Assembly (NCBI GenBank): GCA_019058315.1
Contig: JAHPZH010000002.1
Location: 320,001 to 384,000, forward strand
Length of the DNA: 64,000 nucleotides
From: Candidatus Helarchaeota archaeon
Lineage (GTDB): Archaea; Asgardarchaeota; Lokiarchaeia; Helarchaeales; RDOG01
Direction: 5' to 3'
The notes below the pieces were generated by a model. That model had not been told where the DNA came from. It worked only from the letters and a program-made list of their open reading frames with translations, and did not search any database. How positions within the stretch are numbered: the stretch's first letter is position 1; the number at the start of each line of letters is the position of its first letter. Shown here one piece after another: positions 7,666 to 62,687 of this stretch. The position numbers and the translations under genes were made by a program.

Positions 7666-8841
7666 TTAAAAATCTATGTCTTTACCATCCCACATGTATT
7701 GAATTATTTTAGCCAAGTCTTCTGTTTCAGGTATTGGTTTATTGGTAGTACTACATGGATCATCATCTGCAAATTTTACAAATTTATCAAAATTAGCTTT
7801 AAAATCTTGTTCACTAATTCCCAAATCTTTAAATGTCATAGGAGCTCCAATTCGTTGATATAAATCTTTAATAGCATTAAGCAATCCTCTATATGCTTTG
7901 TCATCATCTGGTTCCCAAATATCCAGAGCTCGTTGTGCAATTTCTGCCAACCATTTTTTAGCATCAGGTTCCCTATTTGCATTAAATTGAATTATGTAGC
8001 GAAGTGCTAAGCCAACACATTGTCCATGAGGTTTATGAAAGACCGCTCCACACGCATGCCCTATTGAATGCCCAATCCCTGCTTGAGAATTTCCAAATCC
8101 TAATCCCGCAACTGTGGCTGCAATATGAACTTTATTTCGAGCTTTCATATCGTCCCCATTTTTCACAGCTTGTTCTAAATTCTCAAAAATTAATCGAATC
8201 GCATTCAGACAGTGTCCATCTGAAATTTCATTTTTAAAACTCGAAATATAAGCCTCAACTGCATGGGTTAATACATCTAGACCAGTTCCCATAGTGAGTC
8301 TTTGAGGCATATTTTTTGGAAAGACTGGATCTAAAAGTGCTACTATAGGTACTAGGTCTCTAGAACCATATGCAGTTTTTACACCATCCGCATTGGTATC
8401 TGTATAAACAACAGCCCATGTAACATCAGAACCAGTTCCACTTGTAGTAGGAATACAAATATATTCTGCTTTTTTCATATTTAATTTTGCTGTAAAACTA
8501 ATATTTCTTATATCTTTGTCGGGAAATTCGTACAAAAACCAAATACCCTTCCCAGCATCCATAACACTGCCGCCACCTAGCCCAATTATCAAATCAGGTT
8601 CAAATTCTTGGCATATTTTCCCACCTTCCTCTACAACTTTCATAGTGGGATCAGGCATAATTTTATTGAATATTTGAATCTCAGGCTTTGATCTTAAATT
8701 CTTTACGACTAAATCTATAAATCCGAGTTCCTGACAGACTTGATCTGTAACTATTAAGACTTTTTTCGGTTTAATTTGTCCTAAATATTTTAAGGAATTT
8801 GGTCCAAAAACAATTTTCCTAGGTGAAGAATAAAACCACAT
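7666..8841 (-). CDS. Iron-containing alcohol dehydrogenase
   Basis: GGGSVMD, PTTSGTGS, DVLTHAVEAY, GHSIGH, PHG. Confidence 0.93.
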   Translation of the reverse strand: MWFYSSPRKIVFGPNSLKYLGQIKPKKVLIVTDQVCQELGFIDLVVKNLRSKPEIQIFNKIMPDPTMKVVEEGGKICQEFEPDLIIGLGGGSVMDAGKGIWFLYEFPDKDIRNISFTAKLNMKKAEYICIPTTSGTGSDVTWAVVYTDTNADGVKTAYGSRDLVPIVALLDPVFPKNMPQRLTMGTGLDVLTHAVEAYISSFKNEISDGHCLNAIRLIFENLEQAVKNGDDMKARNKVHIAATVAGLGFGNSQAGIGHSIGHACGAVFHKPHGQCVGLALRYIIQFNANREPDAKKWLAEIAQRALDIWEPDDDKAYRGLLNAIKDLYQRIGAPMTFKDLGISEQDFKANFDKFVKFADDDPCSTTNKPIPETEDLAKIIQYMWDGKDIDF

Positions 8842-8876: not shown

Positions 8877-9275
8877 TTAAAATTCTACGCCTTCGACTAA
8901 AGTTATCGTATTTACTAATTCTAAAGCAGCTTTAGTTGCTCTCATAATCTTTGACATGTCACCATCAAGCATTAATTCGCCTTCCATCAATGCTCTAATG
9001 GGATCTAGTTCTTTTTTGGCTATTTTTACATAAGTCTCATATGTACCTTCAATTTTAAATTCAGCTTCTTTATTTTCATCTGCTTCTTCTACTCCACGGC
9101 AATTTCCGTGCCAAAGATCAATATACATAAAAAATTTATCGTCACCCATGTCGCATATAAATAGAAAATCGCCTTCCCATGTTGAAGACACCTTTGCATA
9201 TTCTGGATTATTATTTAAAGCAGCACAAAAGGCGTTAGCCCACTCGGGCGTCATATATTTCATTACTATCACCAT
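8877..9275 (-). CDS. SCP2 sterol/lipid-binding domain protein
   Basis: EWANAFCAALN…WEGDF…DLWHG…ELDPIRALMEGELMLDGD. Confidence 0.88.
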   Translation of the reverse strand: MVIVMKYMTPEWANAFCAALNNNPEYAKVSSTWEGDFLFICDMGDDKFFMYIDLWHGNCRGVEEADENKEAEFKIEGTYETYVKIAKKELDPIRALMEGELMLDGDMSKIMRATKAALELVNTITLVEGVEF

Positions 9276-9387: not shown

Positions 9388-9891
9388 TTATTTTTCATAA
9401 GCTAGTACAGCAAACTCGCCTACAAATTTCTTCTTTTTCTGGTATGCTTCTTCATCTGGTGAGACCACCTTTAATGCTTCATGAGGACACACTTTTACAC
9501 ACTGAGGTTCTTTATAACCTATATCAGTACACATCTCACATTTATGGATATAACCTTGGTCACCTACTCCAATAGCACCAAAAGGACAAACTTTCACGCA
9601 TGTACGGCAGTGAAAACATTTATTGTAATCTATTTTTATAATATGAGTTTTTGGATCTCGAGATATTGCTTCAACAGGACAAGCAGAAATCGGTAAGCAG
9701 TCTTCACACTGCATACAAAAAACTGGATAATTATATTTCCAGCTAAAGTCAATAACTTCAATCCTAGAATTTATCATATTTACGTCCCCTGAATTTACTA
9801 TACTACATGCTAACATACAAAGTTTGCAATCTGTACACTTTTCGGGATCCGCCCAAATTATATTCTTTTCTGCCATTTTTATCCTCCCCAA
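9388..9891 (-). CDS. 4x[4Fe-4S] electron-transfer subunit (AOR partner)
   Basis: CTDCKLCMLAC, CMQC…ACP, CFHCRTCVKVCP, CEMC…CVKVCP; overlaps the aor stop. Confidence 0.9.
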   Translation of the reverse strand: MGRIKMAEKNIIWADPEKCTDCKLCMLACSIVNSGDVNMINSRIEVIDFSWKYNYPVFCMQCEDCLPISACPVEAISRDPKTHIIKIDYNKCFHCRTCVKVCPFGAIGVGDQGYIHKCEMCTDIGYKEPQCVKVCPHEALKVVSPDEEAYQKKKKFVGEFAVLAYEK

Positions 9892-11723
9892 ATATCCTTT
9901 ATTACAAATTCTAAATTTAATTCTTTCAATAATTCCTTTGTTGGTCTCCCTGTTGCTTCATCCCATTTGCGATATTGGTAATATTCTTTTAGATGTCTCG
10001 GAAAATCTGGAACATTTCCTTCAGTTCCTCCTTCTAGAGGTGTTAGGAACATTTTAGGTAGATAATCATCTTCATTTGTGATTCCCATTTTATTATTAAA
10101 AGCACGTTTTAAATTGAAGCTGCGTTTACCAATTAATCTCAAAGTCTCAATTGGAAAATCAATACCTGTTCCATATTTGAGCAGTTTAGAAATATGTTCT
10201 CCTGTTGGATGGGCAAAGTTGCAGAATATTAATGAGCTATATATTGTACGGAAATCTTGTTCATTTGCTATAATTTCACCAATTTTATTATCATCAAATC
10301 TTTCATGGAATGGCACTCCAAATTCAGGTGCTGCATTTCCATAACAAACTTCATAATCATCTTGTGCCATATGGCAAGCACCGCGGGTCGCAGTGGCATA
10401 GCCTATACCCATTCCAAAAAATGCTCTTGGATCATGCATAGGAATTTCCAATCCTTTTATTACAGCCATTTCATCACGAGGAACTTTGAACTTTTCTCCA
10501 GCTCTCAATGTTCCCTCTGCCAATATATTTCCAAATCCTTTTCTTTTAGCAATTAAGTCTACTAATTGAACTATCATATCTGCATCTCCCCATTTAATCT
10601 CCAGACCTTCTGTTTCGACTTTTGTTATATATTCTTTTTCATACATATACATGGCAAATGCAATAGTTGAACCCCCTGTGATTGTATCTATTCCATGGAG
10701 ATTACATAATTCATTACTTTTTAATATTGATTCGAGATTATCATTTAAAGTAAGTGCTCCAAAGGTGCCTAGAGTCTCATATTCTGCACATTCATGAACA
10801 GGTGTTTTAAATTTGCCCTCTTTAACTTCAATAAGTTTCCTACAACGAATTGCACAGCTAAAACATGCATCATGTTTTATTACATATCTGTCATGTTGTT
10901 CGCTACCACTAATTTTTTGGGCTCCGTCCCATTCCCCTTGTGAATAATATTTTGACACTAAATCACCGAATGCATAACCTGTATCTAGATATCCAGCAGT
11001 TCCCAATTCTTTGAACATCTTAGAAGTAAATTTCTTCATTTGATGTTCATTAGCTTCATTACAAACTTTTAAAAATTCTAGAGAATCAGCCAATTCAACT
11101 TTTCCTCTTGCTTTAATAGCAATAGCCTTTAGATTTTTACTACCCATAACTGCCCCCATACCAGTTCTTCCAGCAGCTCGAATGTTATCATTCATTATAG
11201 CAGCAAATCTAACTTGATTGACTCCGCCAAGCCCAATAGAGGCGACTCTAAATCGATTATCCTCTAATTCTTTTCGGACTTGCTGAAGTGTCTGTTCTGT
11301 ATTTTTTTTCCAAATTTTTTTTGCAGGACGTAATTCTGTGTCAGGACCGGATATTACTAAATAAACAGGTTTTTCAGCTTTTCCAGTAAATAATATCCCG
11401 TCATATCCTGCGTGTTTAAGTTCTGCACCCCAAACTCCAGAAGATGTAGACTCACCCCAAATTCCCGTTAACGGTGATTTTGCACAAACGACATATCTTC
11501 CACTTGTAGGTGCTGGGGTACCCGTTAAGGGACCTACCATGAATAAGAGCGGATTTTCAGGACCTAAAGGATCAGTATCTTTGTTAATCATGTCATAAAG
11601 TAATCGAGAGGCATAACCAGACCCACCTAAATATTCTTTAGCCCATTCTAGATTTAATGAATCAGTTGAAATCTTTTGAGATGCTAAATCAACTTTAAGA
11701 ATCTGACCTTGATAACCAAACAA
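9879..11723 (-). CDS. aor: Tungsten-containing aldehyde:ferredoxin oxidoreductase
   Basis: KSPLTG, AAGRTGMGAVMGSKNLKA, CFSCAIRC, EYET, GIDTI, HDPR, RGACH. Confidence 0.95.
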   Translation of the reverse strand: MFGYQGQILKVDLASQKISTDSLNLEWAKEYLGGSGYASRLLYDMINKDTDPLGPENPLLFMVGPLTGTPAPTSGRYVVCAKSPLTGIWGESTSSGVWGAELKHAGYDGILFTGKAEKPVYLVISGPDTELRPAKKIWKKNTEQTLQQVRKELEDNRFRVASIGLGGVNQVRFAAIMNDNIRAAGRTGMGAVMGSKNLKAIAIKARGKVELADSLEFLKVCNEANEHQMKKFTSKMFKELGTAGYLDTGYAFGDLVSKYYSQGEWDGAQKISGSEQHDRYVIKHDACFSCAIRCRKLIEVKEGKFKTPVHECAEYETLGTFGALTLNDNLESILKSNELCNLHGIDTITGGSTIAFAMYMYEKEYITKVETEGLEIKWGDADMIVQLVDLIAKRKGFGNILAEGTLRAGEKFKVPRDEMAVIKGLEIPMHDPRAFFGMGIGYATATRGACHMAQDDYEVCYGNAAPEFGVPFHERFDDNKIGEIIANEQDFRTIYSSLIFCNFAHPTGEHISKLLKYGTGIDFPIETLRLIGKRSFNLKRAFNNKMGITNEDDYLPKMFLTPLEGGTEGNVPDFPRHLKEYYQYRKWDEATGRPTKELLKELNLEFVIKDIWGG

Positions 11724-12363: not shown

Positions 12364-13044
12364 TTAAATTATTTTTCTCGCCAAATTATGAATTATTTTT
12401 TCCTTATCTTTTACACATAATATTAAATCTTTATCTTTTTTTTTGAATATTACACCTTCCATAAATTCAGGCCATTTAAAGTCTTCAGAGAATACATCAA
12501 ATAACACTGCTTTGAAAAGAATAATATTCAAATCGTGAGAAACATGTAAATCGATCTCTTTTGAATTATTTTGGTTACATTGAATTAACGAATTTATCAT
12601 ATCATTCCTTGCCCTTTTTGGAGGATGTAATATAGTCTTATCAAATCCTCCTCTAAACCACTTTTCAACAAATCCCGAAACTCCATGATCAGTAAAAAGA
12701 TCAAAAATTAAGTGACCTTTTAGGATATATGTGCCCCCTAAGAAATCCCTTTCACCAATCATTAATCCAGAACCATGACTATCTCGAATCCCTTGATATA
12801 TTAATTCTGCTGTATCCTTACATCTAGATATTGGACTATGAAATATACGGATTAATCTATCCTTTGGAAGTAGTTTTCCAAATTCATAAGCTAATTTTTC
12901 TCCTTCGGGTGTTAGCTGGGCATTTCGTAGTGAGTCTCTATTAATTATATTTTCACGAATAGAATGACGAAGGAGGACTGAAATTATATTACTCCTACTG
13001 TACTCATAAATTCTATCTGCGAATTCGTTTATATCCAATTTCAT
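12364..13044 (-). CDS. Histidine phosphatase (phosphoglycerate mutase-like) family protein
   Basis: LLRHS, LTPEG, SPISRCKDTA, VSHD. Confidence 0.85.
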   Translation of the reverse strand: MKLDINEFADRIYEYSRSNIISVLLRHSIRENIINRDSLRNAQLTPEGEKLAYEFGKLLPKDRLIRIFHSPISRCKDTAELIYQGIRDSHGSGLMIGERDFLGGTYILKGHLIFDLFTDHGVSGFVEKWFRGGFDKTILHPPKRARNDMINSLIQCNQNNSKEIDLHVSHDLNIILFKAVLFDVFSEDFKWPEFMEGVIFKKKDKDLILCVKDKEKIIHNLARKII

Positions 13045-13164: not shown

Positions 13165-13830
13165 CTAAGTATTTTCTAAAACTTCATATAATTTATTTAA
13201 TTTTTCTTTAAGATATTGATAATCTGCCAATTTTAATCCATTTTGATTAAGTAATTTCTCTATTCTCTTTATCTTATTAACAAGTTCATCGATCTTGGCT
13301 TTTCCAGGAAATAGGACTTCCCAAATCATAGAATTAAAAGTTTCCGTAACGTTATGTTTTGTTTTTGCTGAAGTTTCAATGTATGCATATTTAATTTTAT
13401 CTGCATATTCTTGCCCTTCTTTGGTTGATACCACTCTCTGGTCCACGAGATCTATTTTAGTCCCAACTAAAATCCCAGGAACAACCTTTTTGACCTGCTT
13501 TTTGATTTCATCGTGTAAATAAGCGAGGTCATCAAATGTTTTCCTTCTTGTAGTATCAAAAATTAGCATGACTCCACTCGTGCCCTTGAAATGGATCTTG
13601 TTATACCACCCGTTTATCCCTAAAAATGCTCTATAAACTATTTCCCAGAAAAAAAATCGAGCCTCATCATTTGTTCCTGGAATTTTAACCCTCTTATCAT
13701 ACATTTTTATCGCTAGTCGTGTAGGGGGAGGGTCAAAATTTCCGTAAATATATCTATTAAGGAGGTTACTCATTCCTACTTGAGGCTCTCCGACCAAAGT
13801 TATTTTATATATTAAGGTCTTTTCACTCAT
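13165..13830 (-). CDS. Rab/Ras-like small GTPase homologue with degenerate G1/G3 motifs
   Basis: YKITLVGEPQVGMS (G1), WEIVY at the G3 position, GTKID (G4), ETSAK (G5). Confidence 0.88.
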   Translation of the reverse strand: MSEKTLIYKITLVGEPQVGMSNLLNRYIYGNFDPPPTRLAIKMYDKRVKIPGTNDEARFFFWEIVYRAFLGINGWYNKIHFKGTSGVMLIFDTTRRKTFDDLAYLHDEIKKQVKKVVPGILVGTKIDLVDQRVVSTKEGQEYADKIKYAYIETSAKTKHNVTETFNSMIWEVLFPGKAKIDELVNKIKRIEKLLNQNGLKLADYQYLKEKLNKLYEVLENT

Positions 13831-14040: not shown

Positions 14041-16749
14041 TTAGAAGCTTTCGAACTGATATCTATCTATAATATCGTCTTGTACTGGTTTTCCTAGGTC
14101 AATGAAGTAAGCATTATAACCAGACACTCTTACAACTAAGTCTCGATGGTTTTCGGGATGCTTTTGTGCATCAATTAAATCTTCTTGATTTACAACATTA
14201 AATTGAACTTGTTGTCCACCAATCTTTAGATAAGTCAATAAAAGATCTGCAAATTTTTCTCTATCTTCTGGATTTTGTATTAATGAGGGTAATAATCTCA
14301 TATTCAAAGCTAAACCATTACTTATTTTAGTGGTATCAATCTTTGCTAAACTCTTGAATACTGCTGTCGGACCGTTTCTTTCTGTATTATTTGATGGAGA
14401 GAGTGAATTAGAAACTGGCACACCTGCGTTTCGACCATCTGGAGTAGCTCCCAAGAAGTAACCATCAACAATATACATACCATAGGAAAAGAATCCTGGC
14501 CGAAATATTCCAGAATTCCTTATACAAGGATGGCTCATTACTTCATCACAAAATATATTTACAATATCCTTAGCTATAGAATCTACATAATCATTGTCAT
14601 TTCCAAATTTAGGCAATTTATTTTTTAGTTTAATTTGGAATAGTTCTTCCCCTTTGAAATTACTGTTTATGATTTTAATGAATTCTTCCAAAGTGAGTTC
14701 TTTATCTTCAAATACTAATTTTTTTAATGCACAAAGAGAATTTGCCGCAGTTGCCAACCCTCGACCAGAAATTGAATCGAAATCATATTTTGCTCCTCCT
14801 TGGGTCATATCAAGTGCATTTTCTATACATCCGTCTAGGGTCATCGAAATGAATGGATTAGGATAATATTCAGCATATAATACGTTTTTAACATTTACAC
14901 ATTTGGCAATATGATTGATCATATGTTTTAATTGTCTTACATATGCATCCCATACTTCATCGTAGGATTTGAACTTATTTGGGTCACCAGTGTTTACACC
15001 ATATGGTTTTCCCATGAGTTTTATCATTCCATTAGTCAAAACCATCTCAAGTAAACCAACCAGTGAAATATCGTTTCCACTTGTACAACTAAATGTATTT
15101 CCTTGAGATGATGGTTCAACACATCCAATAATTCCATAATCTCTCGCATCTTCTAATAAAACTCCAGTTTTTTGGATAGCTGGTATTACAATGTCATCAT
15201 TATATACAGCAGGTCCACTAGTTTTGGAAAAAATTTCGATAGTCCTTTCAACCCATTTTTTAGGATTTTTTTCAGGTGCAATACGAATAGAAAAGGAATT
15301 TGTCATTGATTTAATATTTTGTATGGCATCCATAAATAAAAAAGACAATTCATTAACTGCATCATTTCCATCTTTATCTACACCACCAACAGTAATTGCC
15401 GCATTATCTGCACCCAGTTCAGAGGCTGTGTCCTTACCGTAGGTGGGTATCATTAAAAGATTGTAACTTAATTTAATTAGTAAATCTTCTAAAAGCTCAG
15501 TCACTTCATTAGGAGTAATTACGCCTTTTTCTATATCAGACTTAAAAAAGGGATAAAGATATTGATCCGCTCTACCAACTGCTAACACTCCAGCCAAACC
15601 ATGAGAAATTGTTGCGATAACGTGATTAAACCAAACTAATTGTATAGCTTCTCTAAAATTCCGAGGTTTATTGGCTGAAATCCAACTACAATTTTCTGAT
15701 ATTTGTTCAAGTTCAGCAGCTCTTTTTGGATTATCTTCTTTAATTGCTTTTTCTTTTGCTAATTTGGCAAATCGTTTTATAAATCTAATACTTGAATCGC
15801 AACTTATTATAGCAGCTTCTAAAAAAGCCTTGTTATCAATGGTAAAACCATTTTTGGAAAATCTATCTTGAAAATAATTGGTCGGATCTGAATATTTTTG
15901 AATGATATGATTGATATCTCTTGAACCTGATAAGTTTCCGTCATGAATTTCAATTGAATTAGATAATTCTTTATTAACTTCATTCAATTTCTCAGTTGCA
16001 AGTTTTTTTATACCCTCATAACCCCATTTTAAAATATTTTTATGCCCTAAAATTAAATGGCCTTGAACATCAAATACGTTATTAACAAAGTTTGGGTTAT
16101 TCGCCATCAACGCGTCAAACCCTCTAGAAATTACATTTTCTAGTGCTGAAAGAGTAGGCAATAAGGTTTCTTCGAGTTGTGAATAATCTTTATTTTGTTT
16201 CTCTAGGATTTCCTTAAGAGTTGGAGCTCCAGCTCCTCTAACTAATCTATCATAAAATTGTTCTATCCATTCATTTCCAAATTGCTTAAAACGCTTTTTC
16301 CAACTTTCTAAATCCCAATTACCCCTCCAAAATAAGCCATTTTCTTTCCAATATTTTACTTTCATTTCTCTAATTGTCTTACCTTTCCAATAAGGCAGAA
16401 TCTCTTTTTTTAATAACTTTTCATCGGATTTTTCTATCTTATAAGGCTGAAATTTTCGTTTTTTAAGTCTTTTTAGATCTGCCTTAATAACCATATTCAA
16501 ATCCCCTCTTTCAACGGGAATAAATGCCCCTACTAGTTTACTAGACCTATTTCCAACAATTTGTTCATGCTCTAATATATAAATTGTCATATTTTCTAGA
16601 GTTTTTTTAAGTGCTCTAGCAGCACGAATTGCAGGATGTTGGCCTTCTGTTTCCTTATAAGATTCTGTATAATATTTTGCCCTCTCAATACAAATCTCGT
16701 AAGGAGCCTCATAGATCATTTTTCGATAGGAATCCGTATGATCAGACAT
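14041..16749 (-). CDS. Glycyl radical enzyme, eliminase/PFL2-like class, substrate unknown
   Basis: ICIERA, GRADQY, GCVEP Cys loop, ATPDGR, C-terminal VRVSGY. Confidence 0.93.
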   Translation of the reverse strand: MSDHTDSYRKMIYEAPYEICIERAKYYTESYKETEGQHPAIRAARALKKTLENMTIYILEHEQIVGNRSSKLVGAFIPVERGDLNMVIKADLKRLKKRKFQPYKIEKSDEKLLKKEILPYWKGKTIREMKVKYWKENGLFWRGNWDLESWKKRFKQFGNEWIEQFYDRLVRGAGAPTLKEILEKQNKDYSQLEETLLPTLSALENVISRGFDALMANNPNFVNNVFDVQGHLILGHKNILKWGYEGIKKLATEKLNEVNKELSNSIEIHDGNLSGSRDINHIIQKYSDPTNYFQDRFSKNGFTIDNKAFLEAAIISCDSSIRFIKRFAKLAKEKAIKEDNPKRAAELEQISENCSWISANKPRNFREAIQLVWFNHVIATISHGLAGVLAVGRADQYLYPFFKSDIEKGVITPNEVTELLEDLLIKLSYNLLMIPTYGKDTASELGADNAAITVGGVDKDGNDAVNELSFLFMDAIQNIKSMTNSFSIRIAPEKNPKKWVERTIEIFSKTSGPAVYNDDIVIPAIQKTGVLLEDARDYGIIGCVEPSSQGNTFSCTSGNDISLVGLLEMVLTNGMIKLMGKPYGVNTGDPNKFKSYDEVWDAYVRQLKHMINHIAKCVNVKNVLYAEYYPNPFISMTLDGCIENALDMTQGGAKYDFDSISGRGLATAANSLCALKKLVFEDKELTLEEFIKIINSNFKGEELFQIKLKNKLPKFGNDNDYVDSIAKDIVNIFCDEVMSHPCIRNSGIFRPGFFSYGMYIVDGYFLGATPDGRNAGVPVSNSLSPSNNTERNGPTAVFKSLAKIDTTKISNGLALNMRLLPSLIQNPEDREKFADLLLTYLKIGGQQVQFNVVNQEDLIDAQKHPENHRDLVVRVSGYNAYFIDLGKPVQDDIIDRYQFESF

Positions 16750-16860
16750 TTAAGTTCCTCAAAAATATGTTTTATTTGTATAAAATAAAATAAAAGAAAT
16801 TAATTAATCTGACTTTTTAGTCATTTTTCTAATCAACATTAGATTTTCTTTTGAACAAAT

Positions 16861-17913
16861 TTAATCAATTGGATATTTACCGTATTTTTTTGGGGCGTTG
16901 ATTAATGCTTGAATATTCTCAACTGGGGTTCCTACCCCTATATCACAACCCGAACTTAAAATATACTTTCCATCTCTTGCAGCTTGCTCTATACAATGTT
17001 TTGCTTCAAGTTCTACTTCTTTAGGAGTTCCCCTCATCAATAATTGGGTGGGTACATTTCCTAATGTGATAATAAATTTCTTTCCAATCGCTTCCTTTAT
17101 TTTTTTAAGATCTACACGGTCACAGCTGAAGATAAATAATCTCGGTAATTTTACGATTTGGTCTACAATTTCTTCAGACTCACCACAGACGTGGAGTAAC
17201 CAGGCAGGAATATTGACTTTCCTTACGATTTTTTTTATATAAGGAACCACAAATTCTTTAAAATGTTCAGGTGAAATACAAGATACCGAAGCAGTTGGTT
17301 CAGTAATTCCGAATATATTAGGTAATCCTTGTTCTATCAATGCTTTATAATATTCAATAATTGTATCTGTACAAATATCAATGACCTTATGGACTAATTC
17401 TGGATTCCTTATTATATTTCTCATTAAATTCTCAGCTCCCATGACGGCTCCAGCAGCTGTAAAGGGTCCTTCTGAACCACCAAATGCAAAAATTTTTTCC
17501 TCATCAAATTTTTTAGAACAGATGTTTGCTGCTTCTAAATTAATAGGCATTCTTCCTTCTTTATAGGGATCTAAAACTTCCAGATTTTCCAATTTTTCAA
17601 TATCAGTAATACCTTTCTCAAGCATTGGAACGGAATCTATTGGATAACTTAATTCAGTTCCATATGCTTCACCAATTACATTCAAATCTAGACAGCTTAT
17701 CAAAAATTTTATCCCTAACTTTTTAGCTATGAATAATTGTGCTTGGGCTATCTTTTTACCATCTCGCATAATTTCAGGAGCTTTTATTCCACTCTTTTTG
17801 TAAAATTCATTCACAGAATAACCCAAAACTATTGGAACACTAGGCACATAAGCTCCTTCTTTTGCTAGCAATCCATCTGCAAGATCTTGTGAAAGCTGGA
17901 GGATTTCCATCAT
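16861..17913 (-). CDS. MtaA/CmuA-like methylcobamide:CoM methyltransferase (URO-D family)
   Basis: GPFTAA, EPTAS, Zn ligands HVCG and SSGC, GNVP. Confidence 0.88.
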   Translation of the reverse strand: MMEILQLSQDLADGLLAKEGAYVPSVPIVLGYSVNEFYKKSGIKAPEIMRDGKKIAQAQLFIAKKLGIKFLISCLDLNVIGEAYGTELSYPIDSVPMLEKGITDIEKLENLEVLDPYKEGRMPINLEAANICSKKFDEEKIFAFGGSEGPFTAAGAVMGAENLMRNIIRNPELVHKVIDICTDTIIEYYKALIEQGLPNIFGITEPTASVSCISPEHFKEFVVPYIKKIVRKVNIPAWLLHVCGESEEIVDQIVKLPRLFIFSCDRVDLKKIKEAIGKKFIITLGNVPTQLLMRGTPKEVELEAKHCIEQAARDGKYILSSGCDIGVGTPVENIQALINAPKKYGKYPID

Positions 17914-18551
17914 TTCGTTTTTACCTCCAAAATATGACGATTGAGAGTTTCAACTGCTGCATTTGCATCAGCTGCATACCAATCTGCTCCTATTTGAGCA
18001 GCAAATTTGTCATCAGGAGCAGCACCCCCTAATATAATTTTTACTTGGTCACGTAGCCCCTCTTTTTTGATCAATTTTACAAGATCACTCATACTATTTA
18101 ACGTTGAAGTCATCATAGTTGAAAGGGCAACTATATCTGCATTGTTATTTTTAATGCTTTCTATAAATTTTTCAGCTGGAACATTTCTTCCCAAATCAAT
18201 TACTTTAAAACCTGCTGCTTCTATAAAGCATTTCACGATATTTTTTCCTATATCATGAACATCGCCTCTAATAACACCTATAACGACCGTTGCTTTAGTT
18301 TCCATGCCTTTTAAATGTGGTTGGAGTACTTGGAATGCCGAATAGAACGCATCACTGCTTACTACAATTTCAGGTAGGAAATATTCTTTTTTTTCGTATT
18401 TTTCACTGACTTTTTTCATCCCTAGATTCAGACCATTTATAATAGCATCTTTAATGTCTATTTTTTGTTCTATAACCTTTTGTGCTAATTGAACGGCTTT
18501 CTCATCATCGCCTTCAATTACTGCTTCAGCTAATTCATCAATTATTGTCAT
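17910..18551 (-). CDS. Methyltransferase cognate corrinoid protein
   Basis: Cap domain (YFLPE), GDVHDIGKNIV, ALSTMM, GGA. Confidence 0.95.
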   Translation of the reverse strand: MTIIDELAEAVIEGDDEKAVQLAQKVIEQKIDIKDAIINGLNLGMKKVSEKYEKKEYFLPEIVVSSDAFYSAFQVLQPHLKGMETKATVVIGVIRGDVHDIGKNIVKCFIEAAGFKVIDLGRNVPAEKFIESIKNNNADIVALSTMMTSTLNSMSDLVKLIKKEGLRDQVKIILGGAAPDDKFAAQIGADWYAADANAAVETLNRHILEVKTK

Positions 18552-18678
18552 TTGAACTACTCAAAATTATTCATTTCAATAATAAACCTTGACTAAAAAA
18601 TTACATAATTTTGTTAAATTAAGTTTATTTACGTCATGAACCTAATATAAAAAAACTAATTATATTGGACGTGATTTA

Positions 18679-20289
18679 TTGGCACAAACACTACAAATTA
18701 AAACTGACCTTAAAAATGTAAATGAAGCAATCGATAAAGCAGTTTCACAATATCCTAATAATATTGCAATTCGTTTTGGAGGAGAAGAAATTACATACAA
18801 GGCTTTCTCAGAAACTGTAATGCAGGTCGCTAGTGCTTTGAAAAAACTAGGTGTTAAAAAAGGAGATAAAGTTGCGGTAGTCTTGGCTAATGTTCCAGAA
18901 TATATTTATTCCTTCTATGGAGCATTAAGAATTGGGGCTGTCCTTGCTCCAATGATTAGAATGCTGAAACCTGATGAAATAGCATCTAATTGTACAGAAG
19001 CAGAATGTAAAGTGTTAATTATTTCTGATGACGGTAAAAGAACGGTGAAGAAAACAAGAAAACAAGATAAGCAATTAGAACATGTAATAATCGTTGGAGA
19101 TAAAGAAATAGAAGAAACAATAAATTGGAAAGATTTCATTGCAACGGGGACAAAGGATTATATTTCTCCTGGTGACATTGGTCTTGATGATTGGGCAACA
19201 ATTAATTTCACTAGTGGAACTACTGGAAAGCCTAAGGGAACAATTCATAGCCATAAGAATTATGTATATGCTGCCATAGGGCAACGCTTGGCTACAAAAG
19301 GAAGTCCTGAAGATTCTGCTGTTCTTGTCTTACCAATGTATCATATCTTTGGATTATCTGTTATGAATGCCAGTCTTAATATTGGTTCCATGTTAAATAT
19401 GCTTCCTGGATTTCTTGTTCAAGATGCGCTTAAAGAGCTTTGTCATCCTCGAACATCAACTTTTTACGCAGTTCCAGCAATGTATGCCATAATATTGGCG
19501 CAGGAGAATATTAATGAATTTGTTGGGAAGTTTAGTCCCAATTTAAAATTTGTTTTAAGTGGTGCTGCACCTTTACCAATGGGACTTATTAAGAGAATGG
19601 AAAAAATATTTATTGATACAAATGGTAGACAAATACCAATAGTAGAAGGTTGGGGCACAACGGAAGACGCAGTTTATGGTACTGTAAACCCGTGGGATGA
19701 GCCAGACAAAATTAAATATGGTTCAATTGGAAAACCATTCCCTGATTGCAAAATTTTAATAGTTGATGATGATGGAAAACCAGTTCCGAAAGGAGAACGT
19801 GGTGAAATGGCAGTACAAAATCCTGGAGTGATGCTTGGCTACTTAAATATGCCTAAAAAAACAAAAGAAGTATTAAAACCAGTGAAAGGAGAAGAAGGAA
19901 TCTGGTATTATACTGGAGATATTGGTATTATAGATGATGATGGTTATTATTACATTGTTGACCGTAAGAAAGATCTCATAATCGTCGGTGGAAGAAATGT
20001 AATTCCGAGGGATGTTGAGGAAGTTCTCTTTAAGCATCCAAAAATTCATGAAGCTACCGTTGTTGGAGCACCACACGAAAAGATGGGTGAAACAGTTCGG
20101 GCTATTATTGTTCTTAAAAAGGATGAGGAAATGACAGAACAAGAAGTTATGGATTATTGTAAGGAGAACTTAGCAGATTATAAATGTCCCAGGATAGTGG
20201 AATTCGAAAAAATGTTAAAGAAAACTTCAACTGGAAAAATCTTGAAGAAGGATTATCGAGCAAGCTTCAAGGAAATTAGAGGAGATTAA
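18679..20289 (+). CDS. Long-chain fatty acid--CoA ligase (AMP-forming)
   Basis: FTSGTTGKPKG, LPMYHIFG, SGAAP, GWGTTE, TGD, DRKKD, TGKILK. Confidence 0.93.
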   Translation: MAQTLQIKTDLKNVNEAIDKAVSQYPNNIAIRFGGEEITYKAFSETVMQVASALKKLGVKKGDKVAVVLANVPEYIYSFYGALRIGAVLAPMIRMLKPDEIASNCTEAECKVLIISDDGKRTVKKTRKQDKQLEHVIIVGDKEIEETINWKDFIATGTKDYISPGDIGLDDWATINFTSGTTGKPKGTIHSHKNYVYAAIGQRLATKGSPEDSAVLVLPMYHIFGLSVMNASLNIGSMLNMLPGFLVQDALKELCHPRTSTFYAVPAMYAIILAQENINEFVGKFSPNLKFVLSGAAPLPMGLIKRMEKIFIDTNGRQIPIVEGWGTTEDAVYGTVNPWDEPDKIKYGSIGKPFPDCKILIVDDDGKPVPKGERGEMAVQNPGVMLGYLNMPKKTKEVLKPVKGEEGIWYYTGDIGIIDDDGYYYIVDRKKDLIIVGGRNVIPRDVEEVLFKHPKIHEATVVGAPHEKMGETVRAIIVLKKDEEMTEQEVMDYCKENLADYKCPRIVEFEKMLKKTSTGKILKKDYRASFKEIRGD

Positions 20290-22294: not shown

Positions 22295-22309
22295 AAATAA
22301 AACTCCATT

Positions 22310-56413: not shown

Positions 56414-58213
56414 ATGTCAAAAGAAGGAAAAAAATCTGAGAAAACAATTCGAGAGATAGATTATGGCTATGATCTTTTCTCAATAGCAAAAAAATTTCTT
56501 CCAGTTGAACAGGAACGTGTTGTTTATAAGACAATGCAAAAGGTCTTTGGCGTAAATCCATTAGCTCCTAGAGACAACTCTATGTATCGCAGAGGTGGAT
56601 TTAAACAAAATAAAAGAAAAGTAGAATTCATGAAAGCTGCTAAAAAAATTGCCAAAGAGAGAGGAATTCCCATGTATAATCGTGCAGTCGGAATTCCACT
56701 TGGACAAAGAGCGTTAGAGCCATATCTAATATCTGGTACAGATACTTTTGTTGATTTTGATGATGTTCATCATGTTAATAACGCTGCCATCCAACAGATG
56801 GTAGATGATATTAAAAGAACCGTAATTATCAATCTTGATATTCCACATCGTGTTCTCCAAGTTAGAGCAGGAAAGGAGATTACACCTGAAACTGTAAATC
56901 TTTACTTAGAAACTATTCAGCACACCATGGCAGGAGGTGCTGTAGCCCAAGAGCATATGGCTGAAATAAATCCTGGATTAACATTTGATGGATATGCGAA
57001 GGTAATCACAGGAGATGATGAAATACGGGACATGCTCGACAAGAGATTTTTATTAGATATTGATAATTTATTCCATCCAAGTCGGGTTGAACAATTAAAA
57101 AGAGCAATTGGTAGCACAATGTTTTTACTTGCCCGAGTTCCAACCATAGCGGTTCGGATGGCAGATGGTGGAGTTGTATATCGATGGGCTGCAATGCAAT
57201 CTACTATGGCATTTGTTGCAAGTTACCGATTAACAGGAGAAAGCATTATCTCAGATTTAGCTTATGCTGCAAAAAGTGCACAGCTTGTCCAGATGGGTGA
57301 AAGAACGTGGTTTGCGAGAGCAAGGAGTCAAAATGAAATAGGTGGAATACCATTTGGCTATATGAATGACTTTATGCAATCAGATTCTCGACTTCCAGCA
57401 AAACCGTTCCTAAGGGTCATACATGAAGATGGCGTTGATGTGGCAAGAGAATATATAGGTGCATTAACAAAAGGCCTTGGTGCTATTGGGGCAGTTTTGA
57501 CTGAACAATATTGGTTAAGTTTTTATATGTCTGGAGGTATTGGATTTGCCACCACAGTTGCAAGCGCAGGATATTGTGGTAATGTATTAGAAGAATTCAC
57601 TGACCAAACTACGGAAATTCTTGCAAAATATGGCAAGGTGCTTAAAGTCAAACCAAATTGGGATACAGTCCGTTGGGTTATTGATCTTATTATACAATAT
57701 TGCATGGAGACCTATGAAAAATATCCATCATTGACCGAATATCATTGGGGTGGTGCACATAGAATATCAGTAATTGGGAACCTTTCAGCGACTGTAGCTT
57801 CTTTATTAACAGGCTCTTCAACTTTAGGCTGTATGGCTATGCATTATTCAATAGGTTTGTTAATGAAGGAAGGTTGGTTAAGAACGGGTTGGGCAGGTCA
57901 AGAAGTCCAAGATCACGTGGGTATCGCTTATCTTTGTAGTCCCAGAATAGAGGAAGGAGTCTTTCCAGAACTTAGAGGCATGAATTATCCTGTTGCAAGC
58001 TTTACTGCTGGTCATGCTAGCGGATATATTGGCGCTGCGGCAGGAACTGCTCTTCATAGGGGTCAACCTTGGTCAACTTCTCCTATAGTCAAAGCCGCAT
58101 TTGCAGATCCTCATTTAATATTTGATTTCGCAGAACCAAGGCTAGCAATTGCTAAAGCGTGTTTGAGAGAATTCAAACCCGCAGGTGAACGAGATCTAAT
58201 TATTCCAACATAA
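56414..58213 (+). CDS. mcrA: Alkyl/methyl-coenzyme M reductase alpha subunit, divergent ACR type
   Basis: GIPLGQR, HHVNNAAIQQM.DDI.RT, GGAVAQEHM, YMSGGIGF, ELRG.NYP, AFAD, PAGER. Confidence 0.97.
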   Translation: MSKEGKKSEKTIREIDYGYDLFSIAKKFLPVEQERVVYKTMQKVFGVNPLAPRDNSMYRRGGFKQNKRKVEFMKAAKKIAKERGIPMYNRAVGIPLGQRALEPYLISGTDTFVDFDDVHHVNNAAIQQMVDDIKRTVIINLDIPHRVLQVRAGKEITPETVNLYLETIQHTMAGGAVAQEHMAEINPGLTFDGYAKVITGDDEIRDMLDKRFLLDIDNLFHPSRVEQLKRAIGSTMFLLARVPTIAVRMADGGVVYRWAAMQSTMAFVASYRLTGESIISDLAYAAKSAQLVQMGERTWFARARSQNEIGGIPFGYMNDFMQSDSRLPAKPFLRVIHEDGVDVAREYIGALTKGLGAIGAVLTEQYWLSFYMSGGIGFATTVASAGYCGNVLEEFTDQTTEILAKYGKVLKVKPNWDTVRWVIDLIIQYCMETYEKYPSLTEYHWGGAHRISVIGNLSATVASLLTGSSTLGCMAMHYSIGLLMKEGWLRTGWAGQEVQDHVGIAYLCSPRIEEGVFPELRGMNYPVASFTAGHASGYIGAAAGTALHRGQPWSTSPIVKAAFADPHLIFDFAEPRLAIAKACLREFKPAGERDLIIPT

Positions 58214-58294
58214 TTTCAAAGTTTATTTAATCATTTTAATTTATTTAGCATAGAAATAACCTAGAAATGTGATTTAAAAAAAAGATGATAAAAA

Positions 58295-59896
58295 ATGGAA
58301 GATTTTATTGTTGTTAAAAACCTATTTAAAGAGTTTGAAAGAGGCTCCCCTGCTTATATTGATATAAGCTTTACAATTAAAGAAGGAGCCTCATTTGGTA
58401 TTTTGGGTAAGTCAGGATCTGGAAAAAGTGCTTTAATGCATGCACTTCGTGGCACTCCAGAATATAAACCGACGAAAGGAACAGTCATATATAGGATTTC
58501 TGCATGTCCTAATGATGATTGTCTTTATATCGATTACCCCTCATTAGCAAATTCAAGTTGCCCAAATTGCAACTCAACTTTGGAATTGAAAGAATTCGAT
58601 TTTTGGAAAGAGGCAGAAACTAACTCTCCCCTTTTTCGCGCACTTTATAATCGAATATCAATTATGTTGCAACGTACGTTCGCACTTTACGGAGAACTAC
58701 CCGTATTAGCAAATCTAACTGAGGCTCTAGAAAAAGCAGGCGTTCCTGAAAGACGAAGAGAGGGTAAAGCAGCATTATTACTATCAAAAGTTAATTTAAC
58801 ACACCGTTCAATGCATATTGCCCGTGACTTATCAGGAGGAGAAAAACAACGTGTAGTTTTCGCTATGAGTCTGGCGAAAAATCCACTTCTTTTCCTTGCA
58901 GATGAACCCACTGGAACACTTGATGTAATAACAAGTAAAAAAATCCATAAAACAATGAAGACGGCTGTTAATAAGGATAAACTTACGCTTATTGTGACTT
59001 CACATTGGCCACTTGCCGTTGAAGAATTAACATCAGAAGCAATATTATTAGAGGATGGAAAAATTACGATGCATGCTGATTCTTCTGAAGTGGCTAAGAA
59101 GTTTTTAAGTCAAGTAGAAAAAGTAGAGAGGACAAAAAGAGAGTTTAAAAATAAAATTATGAAAGTTGAGAATTGTATTAAACATTATTACACATTTGAT
59201 AGGGGAATTATTAGAGCTGTAGATGGTGTCTCTCTTGATATTTATGAAAATGAGATTTTTGGGCTTGTTGGTCTTTCAGGTTCTGGAAAAACAACTCTGT
59301 CCCTAATGATGTGTGGTTTGAAAGATATTACAATGGGAAAAATCTGGGTCAATATAGGGGATGAATGGGTCGATATGAGCATCCCAGGTCCATATGAACG
59401 TGGTAGAGCTACAAATTATATGGACATTCTTCACCAAGAATATGCTCTCTATCCTCATTTGATAGTTCTACAAAATCTAACTGGGGCAATAGAATATCCG
59501 ATTCCAGAGGAAATGAAAACCAAAAAAGCTTATGACTCATTAAAGGCAGTAAATTTCACAAATGATGAAATTGAAAATATTCTCTATAAATTTCCAGAAC
59601 AAATTAGTGAAGGAGAACGACACCGAGTTGCCATTTCTCGAATTTTAATAAAAGAACCGAAAATTTTGTTTTTTGATGAGGCAACTGGAACTGCAGACCC
59701 ATTAACTCGGATGGAAATAGTACGTTCAATAAAAAAATCCCGTGATGACCTTAATCAAACATATGTCATAATAAGTCATGATATTGATTTTGTCTTAGCT
59801 GCTTGTGATAGAGCAGCATTAATGAAAGATGGTCACGTTTTAAAAGTTGGAGAACCCGCGGAGATCATAGAATATTTTAAAGAGGTAGAGAAATAA
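58295..59896 (+). CDS. atwA: MCR system component A2 (double ABC ATPase with Zn site)
   Basis: GKSGSGKS, C.{4}C…CPNC, RISIMLQRTFALY, HIARDLSGGEKQR, WVDM..PG…RGRAT. Confidence 0.95.
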   Translation: MEDFIVVKNLFKEFERGSPAYIDISFTIKEGASFGILGKSGSGKSALMHALRGTPEYKPTKGTVIYRISACPNDDCLYIDYPSLANSSCPNCNSTLELKEFDFWKEAETNSPLFRALYNRISIMLQRTFALYGELPVLANLTEALEKAGVPERRREGKAALLLSKVNLTHRSMHIARDLSGGEKQRVVFAMSLAKNPLLFLADEPTGTLDVITSKKIHKTMKTAVNKDKLTLIVTSHWPLAVEELTSEAILLEDGKITMHADSSEVAKKFLSQVEKVERTKREFKNKIMKVENCIKHYYTFDRGIIRAVDGVSLDIYENEIFGLVGLSGSGKTTLSLMMCGLKDITMGKIWVNIGDEWVDMSIPGPYERGRATNYMDILHQEYALYPHLIVLQNLTGAIEYPIPEEMKTKKAYDSLKAVNFTNDEIENILYKFPEQISEGERHRVAISRILIKEPKILFFDEATGTADPLTRMEIVRSIKKSRDDLNQTYVIISHDIDFVLAACDRAALMKDGHVLKVGEPAEIIEYFKEVEK

Positions 59897-59897
59897 A

Positions 59898-60395
59898 ATG
59901 AAAGATTTAGATTCAGAACTGGAATATGAGTATAAAGAACCTTCAGGAAAATGGTGGGAAGAACTCGAATGGATTTTTCCTCCAGAAGAAGACCGAGAAC
60001 CCACATGTTATGAAATGGTTCAGAGTTTTATTATAAATAAAGTTGTTCCTTGTGCTAAGTGTGTGGAATTATCGGGACGGTTTTTACCTCGTGTAATTAC
60101 CATTGAAGCTGAACACCCGATTCGAGGAAATGAGTACTCACGAATAATTATAAGTCCAGTCGATGTAGCAGACGGAGCTCCAACAGTAGAACCCGACCTC
60201 TTAATCCATATTAAATATTACGACTTGTTAAGAGTATTAGATGGAGAATTAGATATAATGAAACCATTATTTTTTGGAGAAGGCTGGTTAATCGGTAATA
60301 CAACAACTGGTTTTGATTTGAAAGATTTAGTCGATGTAGCAAATGGAAAAGAATTAGTTGAGAGACCTAAAGCTTGGCCAATAGGTCACCCATAG
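59898..60395 (+). CDS. SCP2-like (sterol/lipid carrier) domain protein inside the ACR operon
   Basis: V.DG…EPDLLIHIKYYDLLRVLDGELDIMKPLFFGEGWLIGN matches the SCP2 C-terminal pattern also seen at 8877..9275. Confidence 0.62.
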   Translation: MKDLDSELEYEYKEPSGKWWEELEWIFPPEEDREPTCYEMVQSFIINKVVPCAKCVELSGRFLPRVITIEAEHPIRGNEYSRIIISPVDVADGAPTVEPDLLIHIKYYDLLRVLDGELDIMKPLFFGEGWLIGNTTTGFDLKDLVDVANGKELVERPKAWPIGHP

Positions 60396-60406
60396 GAGAG
60401 TTTAAT

Positions 60407-61801: not shown

Positions 61802-61811
61802 GGTGAAAATT

Positions 61812-62687
61812 ATGGAAGAAGATGTTTTTGCAGTTGCAGATATTGAAAAATTCAAGAGAAAGAAAAAGAAAGTAGAAAGAAAAGAAGTAGAGAAAAAAGT
61901 TGAAGTTATAGAGGGTAAATATGAACCTCAATTTTACCCAGGACAAGGTCCGGTATCGGAAAGAAGGCGAAAATTATTAAATAAAAATAAAAAGTTATTG
62001 AAATTACGAAGTATTCCAGATGATGATGTGGTTAAATTACTCGGACATCGTCTACCGGGCAGTTTATATCGTAGTATTCATCCCCCTCTAGACGAATTAA
62101 TCCAAGAATATGATCCTATTAAAATGCTTGTAAAACCTACCCCAGGAGCACGTGCAGGTGATCGTGTCCGCTTTGTCCAATTCACTGATAGTTTTTGGAG
62201 ACCTCCTTTTGCCCCTTGGTTAAGAGCAAGGTATTATTTCAATCGTCTACGAGGTGTGGATACCGTTATTTACTCGGGACGTGAAATTTTAGAAATGAGG
62301 GAACGTGATCTAGAGGCAGCCACAAAAATACTAATTGAAACAGAACTTTTCGATCCAGCTAGAACAGCTCTTAGAGGAATTACTGTTCATGGTAGTTCAT
62401 TGAGATTAGATACTGATGGATTAATGTTTGACGCTCGACGTCGATATGTATTGGATAAAGACGTTAATGAAGTTGTTTATATTAAAGATATGCATGCAAA
62501 GATGTTAGATAAACCTATCCCGGTAGGAAGACCTTTCAACGAAGATGAATTAGTTGAGTTTGACGTGACTTATAGATGGGATGCTTCGATGTATAAATCA
62601 CGTACTGAAATTTTAACAGTAATTAATAGAATTGCAAAAGGTAGATTATTAGCAGGTTTTAGACCAGAATTAGTAAATGATTTTTAA
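61812..62687 (+). CDS. mcrG: Alkyl/methyl-coenzyme M reductase gamma subunit with charged N-terminal extension
   Basis: YEPQFYPG, LGHR.PG, HPPL, GDRVR.VQF.DS, RGVD, SGR, RG.TVHG.SLRLD; ATG 61812 after AGGTGA (the ORF track uses GTG 61803). Confidence 0.96.
   Translation: MEEDVFAVADIEKFKRKKKKVERKEVEKKVEVIEGKYEPQFYPGQGPVSERRRKLLNKNKKLLKLRSIPDDDVVKLLGHRLPGSLYRSIHPPLDELIQEYDPIKMLVKPTPGARAGDRVRFVQFTDSFWRPPFAPWLRARYYFNRLRGVDTVIYSGREILEMRERDLEAATKILIETELFDPARTALRGITVHGSSLRLDTDGLMFDARRRYVLDKDVNEVVYIKDMHAKMLDKPIPVGRPFNEDELVEFDVTYRWDASMYKSRTEILTVINRIAKGRLLAGFRPELVNDF

Follow-up and report, generated by a model that had tools for sequence, protein, structure and literature searches.

Genome comparison suggests that a corrinoid protein, an MtaA-like methyltransferase and a glycyl radical enzyme (GRE) encoded next to each other in the genome of an alkane-metabolising Asgard archaeon (Helarchaeales) are juxtaposed modules, and that they do not supply the step still missing from alkane oxidation in archaea. 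The genes lie in a stretch of 64,000 nucleotides (C5:320001-384000; the window) from a 5.8-Mb assembly that encodes three ACR operons, one of which starts 38 kb away from the GRE cluster (56414..62687, plus strand; MCR-like, with alpha, an A2-type ATPase, a small ORF, beta and gamma). The explanation that we prefer, tentatively and with slightly less than even confidence, is that two or three separate modules have become neighbours in a single Helarchaeales lineage, and that the GRE is a functional eliminase- or dehydratase-type enzyme forming an aldehyde that feeds an aldehyde:ferredoxin oxidoreductase (AOR), an alcohol dehydrogenase (ADH) and an acyl-CoA ligase (ACS).

As the preliminary description had reported, the three ORFs are co-oriented on the minus strand, and the genes for the corrinoid protein (17910..18551) and the MtaA-like protein (16861..17913) share 4 nt, with the GRE gene following at 14041..16749. 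Pfam and NCBIfam matches also confirmed the divergent AMP-forming acyl-CoA ligase (18679..20289, plus strand; best model long-chain-fatty-acid-CoA ligase), which is better conserved than any other cluster gene (88% identity in the L020 copy). The intergenic region between the ligase and corrinoid genes (18552..18678) has an AT-rich core, TGAyrTAAATAAAyTTAATTT, that is conserved in L020 and L117. The cluster extends beyond the three genes first described. On the minus strand, the GRE gene is followed by a gene similar to Ras-family small GTPases (13165..13830), an insertion found only in the window's version of the cluster, and by genes for a histidine-phosphatase-like protein of 226 aa (12364..13044), a W-AOR family protein (9879..11723), its 4Fe-4S ferredoxin-like partner (9388..9891), an SCP2 lipid-carrier-fold protein (8877..9275) and an iron-containing ADH (7666..8841). 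The histidine-phosphatase-like gene is conserved in the cluster and always adjoins the GRE gene, on either side. The description of the three genes as an operon is less certain for the GRE gene, which follows the overlapping corrinoid and MtaA-like pair after 111 nt and is preceded by an AT-rich region of its own; in relatives, other genes stand between it and the methyltransferase gene.

The predicted GRE has the features of its superfamily, with a ten-stranded PFL-like barrel (PF02901, 560 bits), a glycyl radical domain (PF01228, 104 bits), a catalytic cysteine and an activase in the genome. A motif scan, alignment with glycerol dehydratase (GDH) and an AlphaFold model (pLDDT 89.7) bore out the reported GCVEP motif, length of 902 aa and insertion in the N-terminal half. 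The Cys loop (residues 542-546, 15112..15126, minus strand) contains C543, aligned with GDH C433 and HypD C434 and by analogy the putative thiyl radical site, and two residues further E545, the probable general base, in the Cys-x-Glu arrangement of eliminase GREs. The glycyl radical loop RVSGY (residues 874-878, 14116..14130, minus strand) carries G877. Residues ~137-303 (15841..16341, minus strand) correspond to ~57 residues in GDH, a clade-specific helical insertion of ~110 residues that holds the invariant motif FDxQGHLxxGH and was modelled as extra helices with a disordered stretch at 267-283. Foldseek gave a TM of ~0.9 for the model against GDH, propanediol dehydratase (PD), CutC and HypD.

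The earlier assignment to the eliminase-type (Cys-x-Glu) GREs was upheld, and the enzyme falls outside the characterised classes: scores to NCBIfam equivalogs reached about half their cut-offs, GDH, CutC and HypD are equidistant (448, 443 and 440 bits; IslA 357-408, BSS/MAS 247-260), and class residues are replaced. The broader PFL2/glycerol dehydratase family model TIGR01774 scored 593.9 bits, under its cut-off of 678.2, in a match split in two by the insertion. GDH of C. butyricum (1R8W) and 1,2-propanediol dehydratase (5I2G) are the best match (448 bits, Foldseek TM 0.91) and share the GIIGCVEP Cys loop and the Gly loop, but they lack the ~110-residue insertion, and the GRE described here has no activase alongside. 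H164, H281, S282, Y339, D447 and Y640 of GDH are, we assume, the residues that handle the leaving group and bind the diol. At the aligned positions H281/S282 are replaced by G387/V388, Y339 by A447, D447 by S557 and Y640 by F754, and just H164 is plausibly kept, with H231 of QGHL, outside the HMMER alignment, as its probable counterpart. These replacements argue against a diol dehydratase, and the mappable pocket residues are more apolar than those of that class. CutC, HypD and IslA belong to the same eliminase subgroup, with a C-x-E loop and comparable scores, and catalyse 1,2-eliminations that yield a carbonyl product. A choline TMA-lyase was rejected on the TIGR04394 score (491 against 1050) and on the CutC segment TSTGY, which is TSGND here, and a hydroxyproline dehydratase on the NF043068 score (556 against 1100) and on the general acid D278 of HypD, which aligns with G387. 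IslA presumably binds sulfonate through an Arg/Gln/Arg triad; its R678 aligns by offset with G752, two residues after an invariant R750 on the same strand, and the N-terminal positions were likewise mapped just by offset. On the positions mapped, which cover part of the CutC pocket, the GRE shows no complete residue set specific to CutC, HypD or IslA, the last being the least certain. A methylated or sulfonated GRE substrate, the other option in the preliminary description, is neither favoured nor disfavoured by these comparisons.

The first gene of the cluster encodes a 213-aa protein with the B12-binding_2 cap (PF02607, 67 bits) and Rossmann-type B12-binding domain (PF02310, 94 bits) of MtaC/MtbC/MtgC-type corrinoid proteins, including the DxHxxG motif (DVHDIG, residues 97-102, nt 18246-18263). 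Its best NCBIfam model, TIGR02370, gave 191.4 bits, under the cut-off of 215.3. The 350-aa MtaA-like protein belongs to the URO-D/MtaA-CmuA family (PF01208, 214 bits) and combines the URO-D fold with the His-x-Cys-x(n)-Cys zinc site of MT2-type enzymes (H241, C243 and C323, in HVCG 241-244 and SSGCD 320-324), which is invariant across the family alignment. It scored under all curated cut-offs (TIGR01463, 190.8 against 235.4; NF040654 for MtaA, 163.4 against 400; NF041608 for MtbA, 111 against 600). The pair resembles MtaA/MtbA/MtsA and MtaC/MtbC/MtsB of Methanosarcina in its fold, zinc motif, cognate DxHxxG corrinoid protein and translational coupling, but forms an Asgard-specific clade, with homologs 44-56% identical in Hel-, Loki- and Sigynarchaeota, present also in ACR-free lineages. 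The homologs always occur as a corrinoid protein and URO-D pair with the 4-nt overlap, in other contexts and with no GRE; in two cases the pair adjoins a 430-aa MT1-like URO-D protein. The reported absence of an MT1 and an activase was correct within the window, where no match to the TIGR02494 activase, MttB or MtaB was found, but not genome-wide. The search elsewhere in the genome yielded two TIGR02494 matches above the cut-off, an orphan with no GRE nearby (C3:1290562-1291425) and one adjoining two other GREs (C8:30919-31794), as well as a RamA-like activator and 17 URO-D paralogs, all beyond the window; 14 of the paralogs (355-430 aa) are longer than the MtaA-like protein and match MT1-like URO-D proteins in size.

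The linkage of the three genes does occur in other genomes, but is limited to four contigs, all from close relatives, where the cluster order is repeated and the GREs are 67-90% identical. None of the six other species genomes in the order, of which five carry ACR, has it, and a corrinoid protein and URO-D gene beside a GRE gene was found at none of ~190 other loci of the GRE's own and neighbouring clades. The GRE clade is large and made up mostly of solitary genes, and its sister clade has GRE genes alone, adjoining response regulators. The motifs FDxQGHLxxGH, GRxDQY, SELGxDN, GCVEP, TSGND, FRP[GS]FFSYG, SNSLSP and RVSGY are kept from the cluster GREs to members in Desulfobacterota and Hydrogenedentota. 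AOR lies downstream of the GRE in every relative with enough downstream sequence (L020, L112 and L117). Additionally, a Desulfobacterales operon (L058; FadR-V4R-GRE-ACS-ECH-AOR-ACAD-GRE2) links a GRE from this clade, with 47% identity and the same motifs, to an acyl-CoA ligase and AOR; it differs in being bacterial, in having no corrinoid protein or URO-D gene and in containing beta-oxidation genes. The GRE-AOR(-ACS-ACAD) arrangement is repeated in other GRE clades; since the clade of our GRE is mostly solitary, few independent cases support the AOR link. The AOR-ferredoxin/SCP2-ADH module occurs without the corrinoid protein, MtaA-like, GRE and ligase genes in five of the order's six other species genomes, one of which, G001, shows just the SCP2-ADH part, on a short contig.

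In the modular explanation that we prefer, a radical-SAM activase encoded elsewhere, with the contig 3 orphan as the obvious candidate, would place the glycyl radical on G877. C543 would then take a hydrogen from a hydroxyl-bearing carbon while E545 deprotonates the hydroxyl, and expulsion of the neighbouring leaving group would give an aldehyde. This could be oxidised by the W-AOR and ferredoxin or reduced by the Fe-ADH, with SCP2 as carrier should the aldehyde be hydrophobic, and the divergent ligase may convert the acid to an acyl-CoA for beta-oxidation. The corrinoid protein and the MtaA-like zinc enzyme would be the corrinoid protein and MT2 half of an Asgard-wide methyl-transfer system, in which a methyl group, or perhaps a short alkyl group, passes between a thiol and the cobalt (Co(I)/Co(III)). 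The adjacency of this pair to the GRE is lineage-specific, and we infer that the two are independent. The conserved divergent promoter region common to the ligase and corrinoid genes counts against this explanation, and the corrinoid protein-methyltransferase-GRE-AOR order is kept on one strand on five contigs, despite insertions and altered flanks (ECF versus ABC transporter side), a co-location that may reflect selection.

Alternatively, the pair and the GRE could act on one O- or S-methyl hydroxy compound, unrelated to ACR, with the aldehyde passing to AOR, ADH and ACS, which we consider unlikely. The pair might demethylate the substrate and so expose a vicinal hydroxyl for the GRE, or the GRE might expel a methylated group, such as methanethiol from a 2-(methylthio)alcohol, for demethylation by an MtsA/MtsB-like system. 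The co-orientation on five contigs fits such coupling, the His-Cys-Cys zinc motif is compatible with a thiol substrate, and MtsA/MtsB, an MtaA homolog and a corrinoid protein functioning without a separate MT1, provide a precedent. Furthermore, URO-D-family genes lie within unrelated GRE operons of bacteria (L173, GRE-AE-GRE-GRE-URO-D-aldo/keto reductase; L067), and GRE-methyltransferase coupling may therefore be a real recurring theme. However, these URO-D proteins show just ~24% identity and have no corrinoid partner, none of the ~190 loci has such a pair beside its GRE gene, clade members with the same active-site motifs manage without the pair, and unrelated genes, either toxin-antitoxin (TA) modules or the phosphatase-like gene, are inserted between pair and GRE in relatives.

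A role after ACR, as proposed in the preliminary description, appears less probable again. Here the MtaA-like enzyme would move the alkyl group from alkyl-CoM to the corrinoid protein, an alcohol or aldehyde would leave with or without the GRE, and the Fe-ADH, AOR, SCP2 and ligase would lead to acyl-CoA. [quoted passage not shown] In addition to the ACR operons of the host, both published candidates, MtaAC of Ca. Syntrophoarchaeum and the W-AOR of Ca. Ethanoperedens, have family members here that are co-located with an ADH, a lipid carrier and a long-chain-type ligase in an ACR-bearing archaeon. These published routes are hypothetical, though, and the association seen here is confined to one lineage, while the AOR/ADH module is found throughout the order, including G006 (94% complete), which has no ACR match. 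An alkyl-CoM role for the cluster is thus disfavoured: the linkage is missing in the five ACR-bearing genomes, the GRE motifs are common to bacteria without ACR or CoM, and the MtaA-like family, which includes Lokiarchaeia, is not common to other alkane-oxidising archaea (next homologs beyond Asgard ~30-31% identical). The relatives' 88.7-kb and 52.8-kb cluster contigs are the longest contig of no listed ACR alpha homolog, the window holds no MtaB-type partner for alcohol release, and a redox-neutral GRE would have no obvious part in a four-electron oxidation.

Lastly, fumarate addition by the GRE as an alkyl- or benzylsuccinate synthase, giving the host a second alkane-activation route, is very improbable even in a hydrocarbon degrader and with Asgard GREs annotated as such synthases (PMC8163825), since no small-subunit genes adjoin the GRE gene, its Cys loop carries the eliminase Glu, and BSS/MAS are its farthest PFL2-type PDB relatives.

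The window holds three adjacent reverse-strand genes and, divergent from them, an AMP-forming acyl-CoA ligase (18679-20289). The first gene encodes a corrinoid protein of 213 aa (17910-18551) with a B12-binding cap and a Rossmann domain (DVHDIG at 97-102). It shares a 4-nt overlap with the gene for a URO-D-fold protein of 350 aa (16861-17913; MtaA/CmuA family; H241-x-C243 ... C323), and an AT-rich gap of 111 nt separates the latter from the gene for a glycyl radical enzyme (GRE) of 902 aa (14041-16749), with the Cys loop GCVEP at 542-546 and the glycyl loop RVSGY at 874-878. Every detail of this set in the preliminary description (ORFs, domains and motifs) was correct. Downstream of the GRE lie six further genes on the same strand: a Ras-like gene (13165-13830), a histidine-phosphatase-like gene with its RHS and SHD motifs kept (12364-13044), a tungsten-type aldehyde:ferredoxin oxidoreductase (AOR; 9879-11723), its ferredoxin (9388-9891), an SCP2 lipid-carrier protein (8877-9275) and an iron alcohol dehydrogenase (Fe-ADH; 7666-8841). 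The presence of eRF1, an XPD helicase and Ras-family GTPases, together with a G+C content of ~31%, is consistent with an Asgard archaeon, and for every gene the nearest homologs carry the label Helarchaeota or Promethearchaeota.

The analysis confirms these genes and motifs, and it places the GRE among the eliminase GREs as a new member without an assigned class. It missed all curated class thresholds, with NCBIfam scores of 594 for the PFL2/GDH subfamily (cut-off 678), 556 for HypD (1100), 518 for HpsG (1000) and 491 for CutC (1050). Glycerol dehydratase, CutC and HypD were equidistant from it among solved structures, with 448-440 bits for the part from residue ~300 onward, and the AlphaFold model of the GRE (pLDDT 89.7) gave a TM of about 0.9 to these three. 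In HMMER alignments, GDH residues H281, S282, Y339, D447 and Y640, which we take to form the diol-dehydratase pocket, were replaced by G387, V388, A447, S557 and F754, respectively. HypD D278 also aligned with G387, and IslA R678 mapped by offset to G752, two residues away from an invariant R750. The Cys-x-Glu loop was kept, as in GDH, and GDH H164 is probably kept as H231 in QGHL; the region of this residue and of the IslA R189-Q193 equivalents lies outside the HMMER alignment, where correspondences are by offset only. Since the Cys-x-Glu loop is retained and the residues defining diol dehydratases and HypD are replaced, the GRE is predicted from its sequence to be of the eliminase type with a rather apolar pocket, and its placement in no characterised class bears out what had been proposed for it.

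The GRE belongs to a large clade with an insertion of ~110 residues, whose archaeal members come from Hel-, Loki-, Thor-, Frey- and Jordarchaeia and whose bacterial members come from Desulfobacterota, Hydrogenedentota, Phycisphaerales and others. Segments near the active site (FDxQGHLxxGH, GRxDQY, SELGxDN, GCVEP, TSGND, FRP[GS]FFSYG, LGATPDGR, SNSLSP and RVSGY) are shared by the cluster-linked GREs and the bacterial members, and an adjacent activase is usually absent. A Desulfobacterales member (L058:8423-21695, CAZWCS010000002.1), 47% identical to the window GRE, stands in a co-directional operon of a GntR/FadR-type regulator, a V4R protein, the GRE, an acyl-CoA ligase, an enoyl-CoA hydratase, an AOR, a FadE-like acyl-CoA dehydrogenase and a second GRE (1096 aa, GCVEP-type). 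In a Desulfosudaceae genome (L031), V4R and enoyl-CoA hydratase genes flank the GRE, beside a MerB-like gene. The clade is widespread among sediment anaerobes, and to know its substrate would close a considerable gap in the picture of anaerobic carbon turnover. To our knowledge, all characterised eliminase GREs yield a carbonyl product, mostly an aldehyde; this, and the recurrence of GRE-AOR(-ligase-dehydrogenase) sets in other GRE clades, points to a flow in which the GRE would form an aldehyde that passes through AOR/ADH to the ligase as the best-supported functional link. We lean, if tentatively, towards a reading of the cluster as juxtaposed modules, in which a trans-activated, aldehyde-forming GRE would feed AOR, ADH, SCP2 and ligase beside an independent pair of corrinoid protein and MtaA-like methyltransferase (MT2).

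The host genome (5.79 Mb in 12 contigs, 94% complete), in which the window is C5:320001-384000, encodes five GREs, and two proteins exceed the TIGR02494 cut-off as true GRE activases: one on contig 8, adjoining two GREs, and one orphan (C3:1290562-1291425) whose neighbours encode a cupin, a Ras GTPase, a CLP1-like kinase and an enoyl-CoA hydratase. The search for an activase elsewhere in the genome was thus successful, and the earlier statement that neither activase nor substrate-specific methyltransferase (MT1) is present holds for the window but not for the organism, which also has MT1-sized URO-D paralogs. There are 17 URO-D paralogs in the genome, most of 355-430 aa, about the size of the MT1-like URO-D proteins found beside related pairs. 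Tandem arrays of ~390-410-aa paralogs occur at C5:67892-74678 and C3:1310858-1319957 which, together with the single RamA-like reductive activator (C3:876475-877248), suggest a large repertoire of corrinoid-dependent demethylation in an archaeon bearing the MCR-like alkane-activating enzyme (ACR). No MtaB was found in the genome. Two MttB-like genes lie outside the window; the MttB-family matches at C11:106589-108031 and C3:325026-326429 have one in-frame stop each, reported as TAA and TGA, where TAG is the stop expected for pyrrolysine in MttB genes, and may reflect split genes, recoding or artefacts of the match.

Regarding the pair itself, the URO-D gene follows the corrinoid gene in every context examined, with the 4-nt overlap wherever this was checked (L020, L114, L117, L120 and L212), and the zinc ligands do not vary within the MtaA-like family. 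Orthologs of the URO-D protein (74-82% identical) are confined to relatives that carry the cluster; Helarchaeota, Lokiarchaeia and Sigynarchaeota have homologs that are 44-56% identical, and those further out are at about 31%. A 430-aa URO-D protein, of the size expected for an MT1, adjoins the pair in two Helarchaeota contexts, and in Lokiarchaeia its place is taken by transporters or beta-oxidation genes. Because the closer homologs come from Asgard archaea and stand in such contexts elsewhere, the pair appears to supply the corrinoid protein and MT2 of a corrinoid methyl-transfer system spread across the Asgard archaea; judged by these homologs, the MtaA-like family does not seem to be common to alkane-oxidising archaea. 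Methanosarcina MtsA/MtsB provide a precedent for such a pair working without a separate MT1.

A coupling of the GRE with this pair, acting together on a methylated hydroxy compound, is possible, although we consider it rather unlikely. In its favour, the order corrinoid, URO-D, GRE, AOR outlasts insertions and changes of flanking transporter genes in close relatives. L020 has a tightly packed arrangement of divergent ligase followed by corrinoid, URO-D, GRE (75% identical), AOR, ferredoxin, SCP2 and ADH. L117 has the same set with a phosphatase-like gene between URO-D and GRE (70% identical), L114 has 3.4 kb of toxin-antitoxin genes parting URO-D from GRE, and L112 (GRE, 90% identical, then phosphatase-like gene, then AOR) and L113 are partial copies. 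Only the version in the window includes the Ras-like gene. Moreover, ligase and corrinoid genes share a divergent intergenic region (18552-18678) with an AT-rich core, TGAyrTAAATAAAyTTAATTT after a T-run, which the window, L020 and L117 have in common and which is a candidate shared promoter or operator. URO-D-family genes also occur inside unrelated bacterial GRE operons, in L067 and in L173:3901-14939 (metagenome contig SDBU01002074.1; GRE, activase, GRE, GRE, URO-D of 367 aa, aldo/keto reductase). Methanosarcina MtaABC is able to move ethyl groups, but roughly a thousand times less efficiently than methyl groups (PMC12450230). On the other hand, an ORF of 187 aa and the XPD helicase, both outside the cluster, are also common to the window and L020, so conservation among close relatives is partly plain descent. 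Additionally, among the GRE-relative loci examined (80 species-genome and 80 metagenome loci, plus other genomes of the order), no corrinoid protein or related URO-D adjoined a GRE, and a weak URO-D match beside a Hydrogenedentota GRE (L047) was not similar to the MtaA-like protein. In a quick maximum-likelihood tree (IQ-TREE) the cluster-linked GREs grouped together, and their sisters, another Helarchaeota set at 62-65% identity, are solitary, between an RsmB-type methyltransferase and response regulators. A literature search found no description of a GRE-corrinoid-MtaA cluster.

The phosphatase-like gene is a conserved GRE companion that changes side, after the GRE in the window and L112 and before it in L117 and L113; it was sought and not found beside other GREs of the clade. 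Its protein falls in an unnamed His_Phos_1 cluster of Promethearchaeota in the Atlas, with neighbours from Thermodesulfobacteriota and Thorarchaeota, and may hint that the GRE substrate has a phosphorylated precursor. The ligase side (21485-28972 in the window) varies: the window and L114 have DUF364 and an ECF-type transporter with several ~200-aa paralogs, and instead a molybdate/tungstate-type ABC transporter is found in L020 and L117, MobB being kept in the window, L020 and L117. These transporter genes and MobB fit cofactor supply for the tungsten-type AOR.

[quoted passage not shown] The genome has three ACR alpha genes, with one operon inside the window (56414-62687). The whole cluster, from ligase to Fe-ADH, could be a lineage-specific route in which the MtaA-like enzyme would strip the alkyl group from CoM and the others, possibly with GRE radical chemistry, would yield aldehyde, acid and acyl-CoA; we regard this as improbable. 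The main argument against it, as far as the GRE is concerned, is that its active-site segments are kept in bacterial clade members without ACR or coenzyme M, which are unlikely to retain an alkyl-CoM enzyme, and the proposed reading as an alkyl-CoM processing unit was not supported. Furthermore, ACR occurs in five of the six further species genomes of the order and the linkage in none of the six, and the 88.7-kb and 52.8-kb cluster contigs of the relatives are given as longest contig for no close homolog of the window ACR alpha. The ferredoxin-AOR and SCP2-Fe-ADH pairs form a conserved module across Helarchaeales (L214-L219), present in five of these six genomes, one of them without an ACR match, and with SCP2-ADH alone on a short G001 contig; no ligase, corrinoid protein, URO-D or GRE was found near it in those five genomes. 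Several of these genomes have a second, convergent Fe-ADH. Beta-scission of the thioether, from alkyl-CoM to alkene, was rejected as unfavourable by rough thermodynamics. Lastly, we reject a fumarate-adding synthase as almost certainly wrong, the GCVEP Cys loop being of the eliminase type. The alkyl-CoM idea is thus tempered by the comparative evidence and the finding is a useful lead rather than a discovery, though the candidates for the post-ACR step at one locus make up a small, defined set of proteins for expression and assay.

Two further AORs are encoded on C3 of the host genome, a paralog 44% identical to that of the cluster (C3:208523-210337; L211:4521-6347), ~9.6 kb from the second ACR alpha (C3:198869), and a third at C3:275149-277026. 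In addition, forward-strand genes at 35350-40371 in the window encode a histidine kinase of 1354 aa, which carries a domain resembling solute-binding proteins, and a response regulator of 292 aa (39493-40371), whose C-terminal domain of ~170 residues is without family assignment. Along its whole length this regulator shares 53% identity with its counterpart beside the solitary GREs of the sister clade (L021), in a family that may have many paralogs.
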